Shown piece by piece: positions 8,211 to 60,004 of a DNA stretch of 64,000 bases; positions within the stretch are counted from its first letter, which is position 1, and the number at the start of each line of letters is the position of its first letter. This stretch comes from an uncultured delta proteobacterium. Lineage in GTDB: Bacteria > Desulfobacterota > Binatia > UBA9968. The translations under genes were made by a program, and so were the position numbers. The stretch is taken from positions 64,001 to 128,000 of the forward strand of contig CAVUZH010000005.1 in the NCBI GenBank assembly GCA_963745835.1, read 5' to 3'. Below the pieces are notes generated by a model. That model was given only the letters and a program-made list of their open reading frames with translations. It searched no databases and was not told where the DNA came from.

Positions 8211-9773
8211 ATGAATGCGGCTATTTCCTGCGACGACCTCGCTCGACTGATGGCGTCGGCGCAGCGTTTCGCGGTTTTCGACGTGCGCGAACGCGGTGAA
8301 TACAACCAATGTCAGATTCCCGACACAACTTCACTGCCGCGGAGTCAGATCGAATTCCGTGTCGCCGAGTTGGTGCCCGATCGCAAAGTGCAGTTGATTG
8401 TTTACGACGAGGGCGGCGCGCGCGCGCCATTGGCGCGGGCGACGTTGACGCGCCTCGGCTACCAACATGTTGCGATACTCGACGGCGGCTTGGGTGCATG
8501 GCAAAGCCAAGGACGCCCTACATTTGCCGGCGTCAATGTGCCGAGCAAAGCTTTTGGCGAGCGAGTTCATCATGAGCGGGATGTTCCCGATTTAACCCCG
8601 GAAGAGCTTAAGTCACTGCAGGATCGTTCGACGGATCTGGTTATTCTCGATGTTCGCACTCCGGAGGAGTACGGCCGGTTTTGCATTCCCGGCGGCATCA
8701 ATGTTCCTGGCGGTGACCTGATTCTCTGGGTCGAAGAATTGAAGCAGCGCAAGCCGACAAATGTCATCGTCAATTGCGCCGGGCGCACACGCAGCATCAT
8801 CGGCGCCGCCGCGCTGCGCCGCCTCGGCCTCACCAACGTTCGGGCGCTCAGAAATGGAACCATGGGTTGGGTGCTTGCCGGATTCGAATTGGAAAAAAAA
8901 CCTCAACGGCCGGCGCCGCCCCCACCTGCCATAGGTCGTGACAAGGCGGCGGCGTTGGCGCGCCGCATCGCGGAGGAAGAATCCATCTCGTGGATCTCTA
9001 CTTTAGAGTTGTCGGATGCGCTCGAAAGCAGAAGCATTGATTATCTCATCGACGTTCGCTCCGAAAACGAGTTCGCATTCGGTCATGTGCCGGGATCGAT
9101 CAGCATCCCTGGCGGGCAGGCGGTGCAACGCGCGGATGATTTCGTCGCCGTGCGCAACGGGCAGATCGTCTTCATCAGCAATGAATCTGCGCGCGCCGTT
9201 ATGGCGGCATTTTGGTACCGCCAAATGGGTTTCTCCCATGTGGCGGTGCTGCAAGGCGGTCTGCGCGCATGGGCGGAGAGCGGCGCACAAATCGAGAAAG
9301 GATCACTGCGAAATGAGCCGATTGGTTTCGAAGCTGCCCGTCAGACTGTGCGCGTCGTTGACCCTCCCACCATTGAAGTGAAAATGCGCGATTCCTCGGT
9401 TTTGCTTCTCGACGTCGGCGCGAGTCTCGATTTCGAAACGGCGCATCTTCCCCGCGCTAAATGGATTTCACGTGGCTGGCTTGATCTTAAACTACCGGAA
9501 CTTTACCCAGAGCGAACTCAGCCGATCGTCTTGACTTGTGCCGACGGTCGCTCGTCGATACTAGCGGCGCTGACACTGAGCGAGTTAGGTTACAGCGATG
9601 TTGTGGTTCTTGGCGGCGGCGTGCGCGCGTGGTCGGCGGCCGGCTTTCCCACTGAACAAGGAGTAGACGGCTGCTTGGTCGAATGCAACGACGTGGTTTT
9701 ATCGCCGTCGATCCGCGGCACCAAGGAAGACATGCAGCGTTATCTGGATTGGGAGTTGACACTAACGAAGTAA
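8211..9773 (+). CDS. Multidomain (four-repeat) rhodanese-related sulfurtransferase
   Basis: Four DVR/DVG...L.GG..AW repeats; GVNVPSKAFGE; active-site loop NCAGRTRS; terminal MQRYLDWE. Confidence 0.88.
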   Translation: MNAAISCDDLARLMASAQRFAVFDVRERGEYNQCQIPDTTSLPRSQIEFRVAELVPDRKVQLIVYDEGGARAPLARATLTRLGYQHVAILDGGLGAWQSQGRPTFAGVNVPSKAFGERVHHERDVPDLTPEELKSLQDRSTDLVILDVRTPEEYGRFCIPGGINVPGGDLILWVEELKQRKPTNVIVNCAGRTRSIIGAAALRRLGLTNVRALRNGTMGWVLAGFELEKKPQRPAPPPPAIGRDKAAALARRIAEEESISWISTLELSDALESRSIDYLIDVRSENEFAFGHVPGSISIPGGQAVQRADDFVAVRNGQIVFISNESARAVMAAFWYRQMGFSHVAVLQGGLRAWAESGAQIEKGSLRNEPIGFEAARQTVRVVDPPTIEVKMRDSSVLLLDVGASLDFETAHLPRAKWISRGWLDLKLPELYPERTQPIVLTCADGRSSILAALTLSELGYSDVVVLGGGVRAWSAAGFPTEQGVDGCLVECNDVVLSPSIRGTKEDMQRYLDWELTLTK

Positions 9774-54949: not shown

Positions 54950-55006
54950 CCGGATAAATTGCCAACGGCTGGGCTGCGCTCGCAGCAAGAAGTGAAAGGA
55001 GGTCGT

Positions 55007-55732
55007 ATGAAAGACACTGTAATTTTTCTCGCCGGCGCCGCATTTGGAGCCGGTATGATGTATGCCCTCGATCCCGATGCTGGAAGGCGTCGCCGCGCTC
55101 TGACCCGCGATCAGTTAGTAAGGGCTCGGGTAAAGACGCGCGAAACCGCATCGGCTACAGCCCGGGATCTCCTCAATCGCAGCTACGGCATCATGACCGG
55201 AGCGCGCTCTCGCTTGTTTCAAGGCGAGGTTGACGATGAAGTACTCGAGCAAAGAGTTCGCTCCAAGTTTGGCTACGTCGTGCGCAATCCTTCGGCCATT
55301 CAAGCGCGAGTCGACTCCGGGCGTGTGACTTTAACTGGCGCGGTGCGCGCCGATGAAGTGGATCAATTGATCGCCGAAGTCTCCGCGGTGCGAGGCGTGA
55401 CCGCCGTGGAGAACCGTTTGGACGTACATCATGAAGCGGCCCATGTGCCGGAACTGCAAAGCGGCGATAAACCCAGGCCAAGCCGGCCGCGGCTTGACAT
55501 CTTTCAACGGCGCTGGTCGCCGGCGACGCGCCTGCTAATCGGCATCTCCGGCGCTGCGATCATATATGCCGTTGCTCGGCCGCATTTTCTCTGGAGCGCC
55601 TTATTATCGTTAGGGCTGGCGGGTTACGCCTCTGCGGGCGCCGATGCTGGGCGCGCCCTGTTGCCGCGCCGGCTCAAAGGAAAGCAGGTTAATGCGCTGT
55701 ATGACCCTTTGAGCACGAGCTGGAGTAGTTAA
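55007..55732 (+). CDS. BON domain protein
   Basis: GAGMMYALDPDAGRRRRA, DDEVLEQRVRSK, GRVTLTG, VRGVTAVENRL; AGGAGG RBS. Confidence 0.85.
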   Translation: MKDTVIFLAGAAFGAGMMYALDPDAGRRRRALTRDQLVRARVKTRETASATARDLLNRSYGIMTGARSRLFQGEVDDEVLEQRVRSKFGYVVRNPSAIQARVDSGRVTLTGAVRADEVDQLIAEVSAVRGVTAVENRLDVHHEAAHVPELQSGDKPRPSRPRLDIFQRRWSPATRLLIGISGAAIIYAVARPHFLWSALLSLGLAGYASAGADAGRALLPRRLKGKQVNALYDPLSTSWSS

Positions 55733-55851
55733 TCACCGGACGCCGGCCACGCTGGCCGAGCAACCTGCAGGCGGGTTTTAGCTGGTTCTGCAGCATTGTC
55801 AGCCTGGCTTTAGATTTCTTGACCCCGAAAAAATTCGAAAGGGACCGGGTT

Positions 55852-57597
55852 ATGACCACCGCAGCCGATGTTCTTATCGAAGCCATTCAAGATTGGGGAG
55901 TCGATGTCATTTTCGGTCTGCCCGGGGATGGCATCAACGGCATCATGGAGGCGTTGCGCAACCGGCAGGAGCAGATCCGCTTTATTCAGGCTCGTCACGA
56001 AGAAGCGGCGGCATTCATGGCTTGCGCTTATGCCAAATACACGGGCAAGCTCGGCGTCTGCTTGGCGACCTCGGGTCCCGGCGGCATCCATTTACTGAAC
56101 GGACTCTATGACGCCAAGCTTGACGGCCAACCAGTGCTAGCGATCACGGGGCATCACTATCATGATCTGATTGATACTCATGCGCAGCAGGACGTCGACC
56201 TCGATCGTGTCTTCATGGACGTCACGGTCTACAACACCCGAATCATGGGACCGGCGCATGTCGAACAGGTGACTCATCTGGCGTGCCGCACGGCGCTCAG
56301 TTATCGCGGCGTCGCGCACATCAACTTTCCGGTCGATCTGCAGGAGCAGAAGTTAAAGGAGCACTCAAAGCGCAATATTCCAGGGCACACGTCAAAAATA
56401 TTCTCGAGCAAAGCAGGGTTGCCCGAAGAGAAAGATCTGCGCGCCGCCGCTGAAATTCTCAACTCTGGAAAAAAAATCGCGATCATGGCGGGACAGGGCG
56501 CGCTGGCGGCAACCGACGAGCTGGAGGAACTGGCCGGCACGCTGGCGGCGCCGATTATCAAACCGCTCTTGGGCAAGGCGGCGGTTCCCGACGATAGCCC
56601 TTTTACCACCGGTGGCGTTGGCCTGCTCGGCACCAAACCGTCACAGGAGGCATTAGAGGAATGCGACACGTTGCTGATGATCGGCACGTCATTTCCGTAT
56701 ATCGAGTTCCTACCCAAGCCGGGGCAGGCGCGCGGGGTGCAGATCGACATCAATGCGGCGCGCATCGGGCTGCGTTATCCAATCGAAGTGGGGCTGGTCG
56801 GAGACAGTCGTCTCACCTTGAGACAGCTATTACCGATGCTCAAGCGCAACGAAGACCGGAGCTTTCTCAAGAAAGCCCAAGATGGAATGGTCGAGTGGTG
56901 GAAGCTGATGGAAGAGCGAGGCACCCGAACCGATAAGCCGATGAAACCGCAAGTAGTGGCCTGGGAGTTGGGCAAGAGATTAAAGTCCGATGCCATTGTC
57001 TCGGCGGATTCAGGAACTATCGCAACCTGGTTTGCGCGGCAGATTCGTGTCCGGCGCGGGCAGAAGTATTCGTTGTCGGGCACACTCGCGAGCATGGCCA
57101 ATGGCCTGCCATATACGATCGCCGCGCAAATCGCTTATCCCGAGCGACAGTGCGTTGGCTTTGTCGGCGATGGCGGCTTTTCCATGCTGATGGCCGAGTT
57201 CGCTACCTGCGTGAAGTATCGGTTGCCGGTCAAAATCATCGTGATCAAGAATAATACTTTGGGCATGATCAAGTGGGAGCAAATGGTCTTCTTGGGCAAT
57301 CCTGAATACGGTTGCGAGCTGCAGCCGATCGATTTTGCCGCGTTCGCGCGCGCCTGCGGCGGCACCGGTTTTACCATCGAAGAGCCGGCGTCATGCGGCG
57401 CTATTCTCGACCAAGCTCTGGCGGTTCCCGGGCCGGTGATTATCGACGCGGTGGTGGATCCTTTCGTGCCACCGATGCCGCCGAAAATCACTTTCGCTCA
57501 GGCCAGTCATTTTGCCGAATCCCTGGCGCGAGGCGAACCTAACCGATCGAAGATCGCATGGACTGTTCTTTCGGACAAAGTGCGAGAGCTGATTTGA
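55852..57597 (+). CDS. poxB: Thiamine pyrophosphate-dependent pyruvate oxidase/dehydrogenase (PoxB-like)
   Basis: FGLPGDGING, RHEEAAAFMA, TSGPGGIHLLNGLYDA, GDGGF..NN TPP motif. Confidence 0.88.
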   Translation: MTTAADVLIEAIQDWGVDVIFGLPGDGINGIMEALRNRQEQIRFIQARHEEAAAFMACAYAKYTGKLGVCLATSGPGGIHLLNGLYDAKLDGQPVLAITGHHYHDLIDTHAQQDVDLDRVFMDVTVYNTRIMGPAHVEQVTHLACRTALSYRGVAHINFPVDLQEQKLKEHSKRNIPGHTSKIFSSKAGLPEEKDLRAAAEILNSGKKIAIMAGQGALAATDELEELAGTLAAPIIKPLLGKAAVPDDSPFTTGGVGLLGTKPSQEALEECDTLLMIGTSFPYIEFLPKPGQARGVQIDINAARIGLRYPIEVGLVGDSRLTLRQLLPMLKRNEDRSFLKKAQDGMVEWWKLMEERGTRTDKPMKPQVVAWELGKRLKSDAIVSADSGTIATWFARQIRVRRGQKYSLSGTLASMANGLPYTIAAQIAYPERQCVGFVGDGGFSMLMAEFATCVKYRLPVKIIVIKNNTLGMIKWEQMVFLGNPEYGCELQPIDFAAFARACGGTGFTIEEPASCGAILDQALAVPGPVIIDAVVDPFVPPMPPKITFAQASHFAESLARGEPNRSKIAWTVLSDKVRELI

Positions 57598-57610
57598 AAG
57601 GGGGGAGCCA

Positions 57611-58345
57611 ATGCCGCAGATCATCGTAAGCCGCGACGAGCTGCAACAGCGAGTTAATGACGGGGCGCATCTCGTCGAAGTCTTGCCGGCCAAAGAATTT
57701 GCCCGGGCGCATCTGCCGCGGGCGATCAACATTCCTTTGGCAAAACTCAGCGAGAAGACAATTGCGAGCCTGGATAAGAAAAACGCCACGATCGTTCATT
57801 GCTATGATTACCAGTGAGACCTGGCTCCCAGAGCCGCGTCGCGGCTCGAGAGTTTTGGCTTCGAAAAAGTTTTTTACTATAAACCGGGAAAAGCCGATTG
57901 GTTGGCGCACGGATTGCCAGCGATCCGAGAGAATCGAGAGCCAAAAACTATCTGGGTCATGGACCATATGCAGCGCGAATTGCCGACATGCGGACTCGAC
58001 GAACCTGTTGGGCAGGCCGGCGCGCGAGCGGAGCAGCGCGGCTACTCTGTCTGCCCGGTGGTGAACGAAAACGGAATCGTTCTTGGCGTTATCGGTAAAC
58101 ACGATTGGGATACCGATCCGACCGCATCGGTGCAGCAGCTCATGGATTCCGCGCCGACAACTCTGCGTCCGAGCGATCCGCTGGAAAAGGCGCAACAGTT
58201 GCTCCAGAAAATCGATCACGGAGCTGTGCTCATCACCGACTCAGACGGAAAGCTGCTCGGGGCATTTCTCGGCGCCGCAAACAATGAAGAAGCCGGCCGC
58301 AAACAGCAGGGGCCGCAATCAGAGGTCCGGTCTCGACGAGGATAA
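57611..58345 (+). CDS. Rhodanese + CBS domain protein, probable selenoprotein (in-frame TGA 57815-57817)
   Basis: ORFs 57611-57817 and 57902-58345 share a frame; readthrough gives VHCYDYQ-U-DLAPRAASRLESFGFEKVFYYKPGKADW, completing the rhodanese fold; SECIS-like hairpin follows. Confidence 0.8.
57823..57854 (+). promoter_or_regulatory. Bacterial SECIS-like element
   Basis: Upper stem GAGCCGC/GCGGCUC with a G-initiated GUC loop 20 nt after UGA; lower stem GGCUC/GAGUU. Confidence 0.65.
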
Positions 58346-58490
58346 GAGCTCTCGTGACGCGCTGGGCTCCAAGGGGCATTTCGCCGGATTCATTTGTCGT
58401 TCCTGAACGTTTAACGATTTTGTGGCGCGGACCATCAAACATCAGTTCAGGTCGATTAGGCGCAGGCAAATTAAGCAAGGATGATTCTCA

Positions 58491-59357
58491 TTGAAGCGGC
58501 CGCGATCTGGATGGATTAATGGATTAGTCGTAATTGGCGAATTCTGTTTCTTGCTCTGGCTTGAGCGCCGCCGGCCGTTGCGCCGGCCCGTTGAACCGAA
58601 ACTCAGGCGCAGCGCAAGGAATCTTTCGGTTGCGGTGTTGAGCGGAGTTGCCCTGCAAGTCACTGAGCGGCCGCTTATCGCTGCGCTCGTTTCTACTGTC
58701 GAGCGCCGACGGTGGGGGTTACTCAAACTGTGGTCGATGCCGCGCTGGCTCGAAGCGCCGCTTGCGGTGGCGTTGATGGACTACACGCTTTATCTCTGGC
58801 ATGTACTCATGCATCGATCATTCTGGCTGTGGCGGCTGCATCTTCCTCATCACGTCGATCTCGATCTCGACGCTTCGACCGCGCTGCGCTTTCACTTCAG
58901 CGAGCTTGTGGTTTCGATCGCTTGGAGGGGTGGCCAGGTAGTGTTGATTGGGGTTTCTCCATCCGCCTATTCCGGTTGGCAGAAGCTGCTGATGTTTTCC
59001 ATCCTATTCCACCATTCCAATGTCGAGTTACCGATTGAGCTCGAGCGTTGGCTCAGCCGGATTATTGTCACGCCGCGTTTGCACGGTATCCATCATTCGA
59101 TTATTCGCGACGAGACCGACTCGAACTGGTCGAGCGGATTGACATTGTGGGACTGGTTACATGGCACCTTGAAGGTCAATGTGCCGCAGCAAGCAATCAC
59201 CATCGGCGTTCCTGCCTACCGACAAAGTCGGGACGTGAGTCTTCGGAAGATTATTCTGATGCCGTTCGTAAGCCAGCCGCCCAGCTGGCAACTGCCCGGA
59301 AATGGAGAGCCTCGACGAGAAGCTTTGCCGGCGCGCCGCAGCCAACTGATGGTATGA
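58491..59357 (+). CDS. Sterol desaturase / fatty acid hydroxylase family protein
   Basis: His boxes WHVLMH, HLPHH, FHHSN, HGIHH; TM segments. Confidence 0.87.
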   Translation: MKRPRSGWINGLVVIGEFCFLLWLERRRPLRRPVEPKLRRSARNLSVAVLSGVALQVTERPLIAALVSTVERRRWGLLKLWSMPRWLEAPLAVALMDYTLYLWHVLMHRSFWLWRLHLPHHVDLDLDASTALRFHFSELVVSIAWRGGQVVLIGVSPSAYSGWQKLLMFSILFHHSNVELPIELERWLSRIIVTPRLHGIHHSIIRDETDSNWSSGLTLWDWLHGTLKVNVPQQAITIGVPAYRQSRDVSLRKIILMPFVSQPPSWQLPGNGEPRREALPARRSQLMV

Positions 59358-59366
59358 GGAGATGAC

Positions 59367-59436
59367 GGAGTGATGGAGTACTGGAGCGATGGGTTACAAG
59401 AGCATCGAAGTCCAATACTCCAACACTCCAGTACTC
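59367..59436. repeat. Intergenic inverted array of 8-bp units (REP-like hairpin)
   Basis: GGAGTGAT-GGAGTACT-GGAGCGAT-GG ... CCAATACT-CCAACACT-CCAGTACT-C. Confidence 0.75.
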
Positions 59437-59462
59437 GAGCTGTCAAAAAAGGAAGGTGCGCT

Positions 59463-60004
59463 ATGAACCTGGAATTGAGCCGAAACGGAAAGCTAACTCC
59501 GCAGCAGCTACGTCAACAGCTCCAGGAAGGGGAGACTTCGGATTTGCGGCGGCGGCGCGGTGTTATTGGCTTGTCGCTGGTCGTATGGGATGTATGACGG
59601 CGGTGACTTTGTTGCAGACCGGCATCGTCAAGCACCTTCCCGATCCGCCGATGGGCAATTTCGATTCGGACCGAGTGAACTCGTCAGATACGGCTTATCG
59701 CCTTGGTGCTCCGGACGGCTCGATTTCGCTGGCGAGTCTAGCCGCAAATATTCCGATTGCGGCATTTGGCGGCGTCAATCGCGTGCAAACCAAACCTTGG
59801 GTTCCGCTGGGCGCAGCGCTGAAAGCGGCGGGTGAGGCGCTGGCAGCCGGTTGGTATTTCTATCAGATGCCGGCAAAGGAAAAGGCGTGGTGCGGCTACT
59901 GCATCGTGGGCGCCCTGGCAAACATTGGTATCGCGGTTCTAACCATACCGGAGGCTCGAAAAGCCATCGCTGTTTTGATGAGTGAAACTACAAAAGCGCA
60001 ATGA
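59463..60004 (+). CDS. Vitamin K epoxide reductase (VKOR) family protein, frameshift near 59583
   Basis: DLRRRRGVIGLSLV joins LLQTGIVKHLPDPP..FDSDRV..KAWCGYC (CxxC). Confidence 0.78.

Follow-up and report, generated by a model that had tools for sequence, protein, structure and literature searches.

A predicted rhodanese-CBS selenoprotein with selenocysteine at the far end of its active-site loop, split by automatic annotation and found in many bacterial phyla

We examined a 64,000-nucleotide stretch of DNA from an uncultured delta proteobacterium of the Binatia (contig CAVUZH010000005.1 of assembly GCA_963745835.1, positions 64,001 to 128,000 of the forward strand; the whole stretch is called the window below, and positions are counted from its first letter). 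Near its end lies a single plus-strand reading frame that is predicted to encode a selenoprotein, a rhodanese domain followed by a pair of CBS domains (Table 1). The sole interruption of this frame is a TGA at codon 69, and the frame closes with TAA at 58343-58345. Programs that call open reading frames (ORFs) cut it in two, into a piece of 68 amino acids (aa) at 57611-57817 and a piece of 147 aa at 57902-58345 that begins with TTG. The ATG follows by 13 nucleotides (nt) the stop codon (TGA, 57595-57597) of a pyruvate-oxidase-like thiamine diphosphate (ThDP) enzyme encoded at 55819-57597 and matched by Pfam TPP_enzyme_N/M/C. When TGA is translated as selenocysteine (Sec, U), the product has 244 residues, with an active site that reads H-C64-Y-D-Y-Q-U69-D and continues into the 28 residues that a first-pass annotation of the window had quoted. 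That annotation had claimed that the two ORFs are one frame broken only by the TGA, that the TGA stands five residues past the active-site Cys, that the 28 codons separating the ORFs supply the end of the rhodanese domain, ahead of a CBS pair, and that the whole is a 244-aa Sec protein beginning 13 nt after a pyruvate oxidase gene. Its coordinates were all correct, and the translation and the Pfam match across the TGA bear out the layout it described.

Table 1. Coordinates of the predicted rhodanese-CBS selenoprotein gene and its parts in the window
Feature	Position	Strand	Details	Evidence
Upstream spacer	57598-57610	+	13 nt, ThDP gene stop to ATG; Shine-Dalgarno-like G-rich run at 57600-57607	Read from sequence
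Complete predicted selenoprotein gene, rhodanese then CBS pair	57611-58345	+	244 codons plus TAA	Translation with TGA = U; Pfam
Rhodanese homology domain	57632-57907	+	Residues 8-99, TGA inside	PF00581
Active-site loop codons	57800-57820	+	C64-Y-D66-Y-Q-U69-D70; C64 is the canonical rhodanese Cys	Alignments A1 and A3
Predicted selenocysteine codon UGA	57815-57817	+	Residue 69	Column conservation; independent contigs
Selenocysteine insertion sequence (SECIS), upper stem-loop	57831-57847	+	7 base pairs (bp), GAGCCGC/GCGGCUC; apical loop GUC at 57838-57840; UGA-to-loop distance 20 nt	
CBS pair (Bateman module)	57959-58270	+	Residues ~117-220, with C127 (PTC motif) and C148	PF00571; fold matches

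The Pfam rhodanese model scores 50 bits against a cut-off of 22.2, and the CBS model scores 54.3 bits against a cut-off of 24 in two stretches, as expected of a tandem pair. An AlphaFold2 model built on the 44-row alignment A3 has a mean predicted local distance difference test score (pLDDT) of 92.9 and a predicted template modeling score of 0.83; pLDDT is 98 over residues 51-100, so that the predicted fold is confident across the TGA position. Its N-terminal half is closest among solved folds to BH2092 (PDB 3nhv; root-mean-square deviation 1.4 over 107 columns, 25% identity), and its C-terminal half superposes on the CBS pairs of AcuB, CBSX2 and MJ0922. None of the fold matches is a solved entry with both a rhodanese domain and a CBS pair; each covers half of the model, with a TMq of about 0.4.

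The locus might instead hold two separate genes, a 68-residue fragment and an independent CBS protein started from an internal TTG or ATG. ORF callers do list both, and the databases hold 23 CBS-only clusters of 136-177 aa that are 59-97% identical to the C-terminal part. Yet the 28 intervening codons not only complete the rhodanese domain but are among the most conserved in the gene, with invariant residues from R74 to W97, and the 30 full-length Cys-form homologues in the databases (158-340 aa, most of them about 230) are single proteins. The 68-residue piece, moreover, would be missing the final helix and strands of the predicted fold. We consider two genes highly unlikely.

A further line of evidence is the codon that homologues carry in the column of the TGA. 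Among 61 related genomes, the one that holds the window being counted, the 13 best matches (E <= 1e-44, identity 42-100%) all have TGA there, and 12 of the 13 translate to VYC-x-D-[YFS]-Q-U-DL with U in one column. A scan of a collection with one genome per species returned 386 matching stretches; for the best 80 of these, plus one added locus (L041), the codon is TGA in 71 of the 81, TGC in 8 and TGT in 2. A metagenome scan seeded with the Cys-form protein P0026 gave 70 further loci that cover the column, every one with TGC or TGT. Altogether we count 163 loci, 83 with TGA and 80 with TGC or TGT, which reduce to 77 Sec-form and 52 Cys-form sequences when only distinct 66-nt segments are kept. 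In the full-length database homologues the residue is Cys in 29 of 30 and Trp in one. That last protein, P0054 (231 aa), reads CYDYQWDLS, and its Trp may come from a genuine TGG codon or from a TGA to which a different genetic code was applied.

Record titles place these loci in Chloroflexota, Actinomycetota (including the Rubrobacter-titled bins of loci L052 and L058, which carry the Sec form), Dormiibacterota, Acidobacteriota, Gemmatimonadota (Gemmatimonadales), Eisenbacteria, Binatia and others. A sample of the window's own phylum gave a match at E <= 1e-20 in 2 of 401 genomes, its own genome being one of them, and it was the one-genome-per-species scan that revealed the spread. The family is thus large and extends over many phyla, well beyond the one hidden gene first described. 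On a maximum-likelihood tree of 96 rows (77 Sec, 19 Cys), computed with the Sec column treated as a gap, parsimony requires at least six changes between Sec and Cys, and strongly supported branches force at least two. One Cys form (L093) groups as sister to a Sec form (L075) and has retained an intact hairpin of the kind described below.

These comparisons also bear on the simplest objection, that the gene is a pseudogene with a nonsense mutation, or an assembly error, at codon 69. A single in-frame stop does resemble a fresh nonsense mutation, and degraded relatives exist: two (L032 and L034) are disrupted by frameshifts or additional stops, and a third (L033) has lost the CBS part. The TGA, on the other hand, is present in 77 distinct sequences whose proteins are only 36-65% identical, with purifying conservation on either side of it. 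Contigs from three studies span the codon without a difference at 57815-57817, although one run may be the source of the window itself. In a second strain (run X9), 57832 changes from A to G, turning an A-U pair into G.U, and 57840 changes from C to G, turning the loop from GUC to GUG, while stem and TGA are retained. The probability that the stop is a recent lesion or an artifact is, in our judgment, negligible.

Thirteen nt past the TGA begins the hairpin GAGCCGC-GUC-GCGGCUC, which on its own folds at -11.6 kcal/mol. The bacterial SECIS model, as set out in the main text of a recent review, calls for a loop of 3-9 nt with a G in its first two positions (G[G|U]N), an upper stem of 4-16 bp, a UGA-to-loop distance of 16-37 nt and a minimum free energy at or below -7.5 kcal/mol (PMC13188914). 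With a loop of 3 nt, a stem of 7 bp and a distance of 20 nt, the hairpin lies within every one of these published limits. RNAalifold, applied to the 77 distinct Sec segments, recovered one stem of 7 bp in a constant position, with a loop of 3 nt that reads GUG, GUC or GGC. The first-pass annotation had predicted a SECIS hairpin with a lower stem as well: the upper stem holds across orthologues, whereas the lower stem, which is present in the window's own minimum-energy fold, is absent from the consensus of the 77 sequences, and we rejected it.

All seven pairs form in 75 of the 77 Sec segments and in 2 of the 52 Cys segments, one of the two being the L093 segment mentioned above. The stem overlaps the codons of an invariant R-A-A-x-R-L-E, so conservation of the protein could explain part of its invariance. 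That objection is answered by the synonymous sites, which are fixed in the Sec forms only. There, the two Ala codons are GCC and GCG in 77 of 77 segments, the Arg codon is CGG in 76 of 77 and the Leu codon is CTC (73) or CTT (4), giving a fixed pattern GCC-GCG-nnn-CGG-CTY; in the Arg codon ahead of these, the third base is only A or G, both of which pair with the opposite U. Cys forms encode the same RAAxRLE peptide with free codon choice, the first Ala being GCG in 26, GCA in 11, GCC in 9 and GCT in 5, that is, with all synonymous codons in use. In general design the element resembles the bacterial SECIS of E. coli fdhF, a coding-region hairpin just past the UGA with a G[G|U]N apical loop and with spacing and energy within the model. 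It differs in its minimal 3-nt loop, in the lack of a predicted bulged U, and in a stem that is nearly invariant across phyla, partly because it encodes the conserved peptide.

The genome that holds the window (G000) is a bin of 25 contigs, 97.1% complete, and it has the machinery that Sec insertion needs. Genes for selA (608.6 bits), selB (394.3 bits) and selD (383.4 bits), all above the curated cut-offs, form one cluster on its contig C22, and a tRNA-Sec scores 74.2 bits, likewise above its curated cut-off, and is called by ARAGORN as tRNA-SeC with anticodon tca. The selD gene (C22:69235-70161, L010) is itself a selenoprotein gene with a single TGA, in G-U-AAKL, and 33 nt past that TGA lies an 8-bp hairpin with a GUU loop, an example of the same hairpin style within the genome. 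Elsewhere, selA is present in all three of the Sec-form genomes of other phyla that were tested and also in one Cys-form Acidobacteriota genome; it was not found in the Cys-form Streptomyces genome. Three checks proposed with the original claim, for Cys or TGA in this column of homologues, for the TGA in independent assemblies and for Sec machinery in the genome, therefore all came out in its favor, as did the comparison of the hairpin with the bacterial SECIS model.

Readthrough of the UGA need not involve Sec: a near-cognate tRNA could insert Trp or Cys, or the code could be reassigned. The Trp of P0054 in this column would fit such a reading. TGA nevertheless ends other genes, among them the upstream ThDP gene here and a channel-fusion gene in relatives, and the residue that replaces TGA is Cys in 80 of 80 non-TGA loci. 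Moreover, a SelB-type hairpin is maintained only beside TGA, and the Sec machinery co-occurs with the Sec form. We regard readthrough without Sec as extremely improbable.

Several points weigh against the conclusion that UGA69 is decoded as Sec. The single-sequence fold of the hairpin is within chance (z = -1.61; 11 of 200 shuffles fold equally well), so its significance comes from the comparative data only. The difference in stem pairing between Sec and Cys forms gives a Fisher p = 9e-31, a value that overstates independence, the sequences within each group being related, and is indicative only. Sampling of the Cys forms is also uneven: 42 of their 52 distinct segments were supplied by the scan that used P0026 alone as its seed (which gave 44 distinct segments), and the seven segments from that scan that are on the tree all fall in one Acidobacteriota-type clade. 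Compensatory double changes occur in none of the seven pairs over the 77 Sec segments; because the stem essentially never varies, the structural evidence is invariance at synonymous sites and not covariation. A permissive Rfam scan of 57000-59000 placed no family at the hairpin, its four chance-level matches (E 0.27-6.6) lying elsewhere. The genome is a bin with 9.33% contamination, and its Sec genes are on contigs other than the window's. Finally, selenium in the protein is predicted from sequence, and no RNA contig crosses the UGA. An RNA run (X15) has two 151-nt contigs at the locus, both on the CBS part (57911-58061 and 58089-58238); a sequence can turn up in an RNA library without being transcribed, and we draw no conclusion on expression from them. 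With recoding signals beside the codon, a Sec/Cys column under strong selection, the machinery in the genome and a family of this size and spread, we are nonetheless highly confident that UGA69 encodes selenocysteine.

Rhodanese selenoproteins as such are already known. The main text of the 2026 review describes five forms, with motifs UxxS, UxxG, CxU (NF041203), UxxG and, in TsoB, UxxxxU (NF045694) (PMC13188914). As described there, they share with the window protein the PF00581 fold, a Sec in or beside the active-site loop, prediction by comparative genomics and the existence of Cys homologues. In the first, second and fourth forms the Sec replaces the canonical Cys, whereas here the Cys stays and the Sec is at +5; in the third it lies two residues after the Cys instead of five, and none of the five is described with a CBS pair. 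The terms 'CBS', 'PF00571' and 'CxxxxU' are absent from that main text.

The window protein (P0001) scores 15.6 bits with NF041203 (cut-off 115), 17.5 bits with the TsoB model NF045694 (cut-off 805), and 22 and 15.8 bits with the GlpE/PspE models NF001195 and NF007627 (cut-off 102 for each), and no NCBIfam model of release 20.0 reaches its cut-off on it. TsoB is alike in having a selenium residue five positions past the canonical site, and differs in being a 572-position model with a DsbD-like membrane fusion and two Sec; the window protein is soluble, with one Sec and a CBS fusion. Two paralogues in the present family (L072:3287-3979 and L118:1503-2186, on two contigs of one Chloroflexi-titled bin) have TGA at both 64 and 69, and their loop Y-U-M-D-x-x-U-D has the UxxxxU spacing of TsoB. 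The closest structural relative, BH2092 of Bacillus halodurans (PDB 3nhv and 3o3w), is a structural-genomics rhodanese of unknown function whose loop C-W-G-P-A-C aligns residue for residue with C64..U69. It has Cys in place of Sec, is a single domain without a CBS pair, and its loop lacks the two Asp. A C-x4-C subtype of rhodanese thus exists, of which the window protein is the Sec form.

Older surveys list COG0607 sulfurtransferase selenoproteins, in their main text without a motif (PMC2398784, PMC1088965, PMC1976440). We did not find the C-x4-U rhodanese-CBS form in literature searches, in the main texts of PMC13188914 and PMC9312934 or in NCBIfam 20.0, although the supplements of the older surveys might hold members; a full-text search found no paper that combines rhodanese, 'CBS domain' and selenocysteine. 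What is new is the position of the Sec in C-x4-U, the fusion to a CBS pair, the wide spread among soil lineages and the systematic mis-annotation.

The conservation of individual residues suggests how the protein may work. All 163 loci have Sec or Cys at position 69; in these loci, drawn from other genomes, D70 is kept in 163 and D66 in 161. Position 64, the canonical site, which aligns with the loop Cys of BH2092 and YgaP, is Ser or Gly in 8 of the 80 Cys-form loci and TGA in 2 of the 83 Sec-form loci. Alignments A1 and A3 show no variation at R74, A75, R78, E80, G83, F84 and W97, and C127 and C148 of the CBS part are conserved in at least 90% of the A3 rows.

In the mechanism we propose, SelB carrying Sec-tRNA(Sec) would bind the 7-bp GC-rich, GUC-loop hairpin 13 nt past the UGA, and the ribosome would read through UGA69 to yield the 244-residue product. 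Because residue 69 is kept in every locus examined, U69 would be the reactive center of a C64-x-D66-x-x-U69-D70 cradle, with the canonical Cys64, at the opposite end of the six-residue loop, as its probable partner. Between the two a selenenylsulfide could be made and broken within the loop, or they could carry a persulfide or perselenide; the loop would then be a redox-switch or chalcogen-transfer site. The P-loop of low-molecular-weight protein tyrosine phosphatases, C12-x4-C17-R, has two Cys that are reported to form a reversible protective disulfide. It offers a working analogy for a C64-U69 selenenylsulfide, with thiols at both ends of an anion-binding cradle in C-x4-C spacing; it belongs to another fold and superfamily, has Cys in place of Sec and a basic loop, and the resemblance is one of workings, not of membership.

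The CBS pair would act as a ligand-sensing or dimerizing regulatory module. By sequence and fold the C-terminal half matches the CBS pairs of AcuB, CBSX1/2, MJ0922 and IMPDH, and the titles of several PDB entries among the matches name a complex with AMP, ADP, ATP or another adenosine or guanosine nucleotide. Unlike the window protein, no solved entry joins such a pair to a rhodanese domain, and an adenosyl ligand, such as the adenylate named in the first-pass annotation, is a candidate.

A classical thiosulfate sulfurtransferase is disfavored, because the loop is acidic and the GlpE/PspE models failed by a wide margin. The acidic residues D66 and D70, which set the loop apart from those of GlpE/PspE sulfurtransferases, also tell against the chemistry proposed here, as does the lack, in our set of loci, of any neighbor gene conserved across phyla that would point to a pathway. 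We judge redox or transfer chemistry at Cys64 and Sec69 to be about as likely as not.

Its main functional rival accepts the selenoprotein and takes the loop, with its Cys, Sec and two carboxylates, for a site that binds or senses a metal or metalloid instead of a persulfide carrier or redox pair; the CBS module could then contribute C127 and C148 as extra ligands. Invariant or nearly invariant D66 and D70 would suit such a site, an acidic loop should repel anions of the thiosulfate type, and two further Cys are, as noted, highly conserved. ArsR-family genes lie nearby in 11 of 86 loci and genes for DsbD-type membrane proteins in 8 of 86. Ser or Gly at position 64 in some Cys forms would, however, be odd for an obligatory ligand, and no metal transporter or resistance gene is a conserved neighbor. 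We think a metal or metalloid site unlikely, though it deserves to be kept in mind beside Cys64/Sec69 chemistry.

A broader reading, which covers either kind of chemistry, is that catalysis in this rhodanese fold has shifted from the canonical Cys to a Sec at the opposite end of the loop and that the acidic cradle would do chemistry that no characterized rhodanese does. Such chemistry might be a redox switch based on a selenenylsulfide, or the capture of a substrate that is cationic or a metalloid, and the attached module would read out the result. The protein would then be a portable seleno-rhodanese sensor that gates different outputs. Portability is suggested by the C-x4-U rhodanese being joined to a CBS pair in the window and to a K+ channel pore in relatives. 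This is a tentative proposal that we hold to be less likely than not.

The channel fusion is a second candidate selenoprotein, found at five loci (L035-L039, in genomes G021, G028, G012, G032 and G030; for example L035:1459-2667 on the plus strand). Its product of about 400 aa matches Pfam Rhodanese and Ion_trans_2, has a GYGD filter and carries a loop that reads CAGPTU or CGSFTU; TGA occupies the loop column in five of five, with a GC-rich hairpin after it. A search with the fusion as query did not find it in the genome that holds the window.

Automatic annotation loses selenoprotein genes, and here it splits one protein into a discarded fragment and a mis-started CBS protein. The 23 CBS-only clusters are C-terminal parts of Sec forms, several of them named 'CBS domain-containing protein' or 'predicted transcriptional regulator' in JGI, ENA and NCBI records; the first-pass annotation had said that standard annotation would miss this architecture, and the clusters bear this out. 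At least 386 stretches in the one-genome-per-species collection match, and all of them would be put right by a curated model for this form. Such a model would also enlarge the selenoproteome known from many soil lineages, above all from those with the titles Chloroflexota, Actinomycetota and Dormiibacterota. That selection holds the +5 position and not the textbook catalytic Cys provides a testable handle on C-x4-C rhodaneses such as BH2092. The nearly invariant hairpin across phyla is, in addition, a natural data set on what diverse SelB proteins recognize.

The genes around the locus vary among lineages. Upstream of the ThDP gene lies a BON-domain protein gene (54959-55732), and downstream, at 58491-60004 on the plus strand, are members of the fatty-acid hydroxylase (PF04116) and VKOR (PF07884) families; PF04116, PF07884 and BON-domain neighbors were matched only in loci of relatives of this genome. 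The ThDP gene was matched in 13 of 100 loci, in those relatives and in two bins titled 'delta proteobacterium', and three of the 13 matches are short remnants. The remnants, of about 172, 67 and 29 residues (L022:970-1485, L027/L043 and L023), stand beside an intact rhodanese-CBS gene, which suggests that the ThDP neighbor is decaying in some relatives. When neighbors were clustered over 86 loci, the two largest non-self clusters (58 and 55 loci) proved to be antisense ORFs over the gene itself and were set aside; the largest real clusters (ABC ATPase, HhH-GPD, ArsR, pirin, amino-acid permease, LigB and DsbD_TM) each reach at most 13 loci. No pathway can be inferred from conserved neighbors in these 86 loci, and the 'stress operon' in which the first-pass annotation had placed the gene finds no support, its members being lineage-specific.

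The degraded relative without the CBS part (L033, G001:C617) comes from a close strain and is 93% identical over residues 1-84. Just past 'RLESFGF' its sequence skips to the stretch that precedes the downstream fatty-acid hydroxylase gene. The second record of run X1 has the same joint, 57862 to 58446, with 583 nt skipped and 46 other letters between; this is probably a deletion remnant. Elsewhere in the window, at about 8223-9659 on the plus strand (G000:C5:72223-73659), an open frame of 526 aa without an internal stop has three separate weak rhodanese-type matches, which suggest a multi-rhodanese protein.

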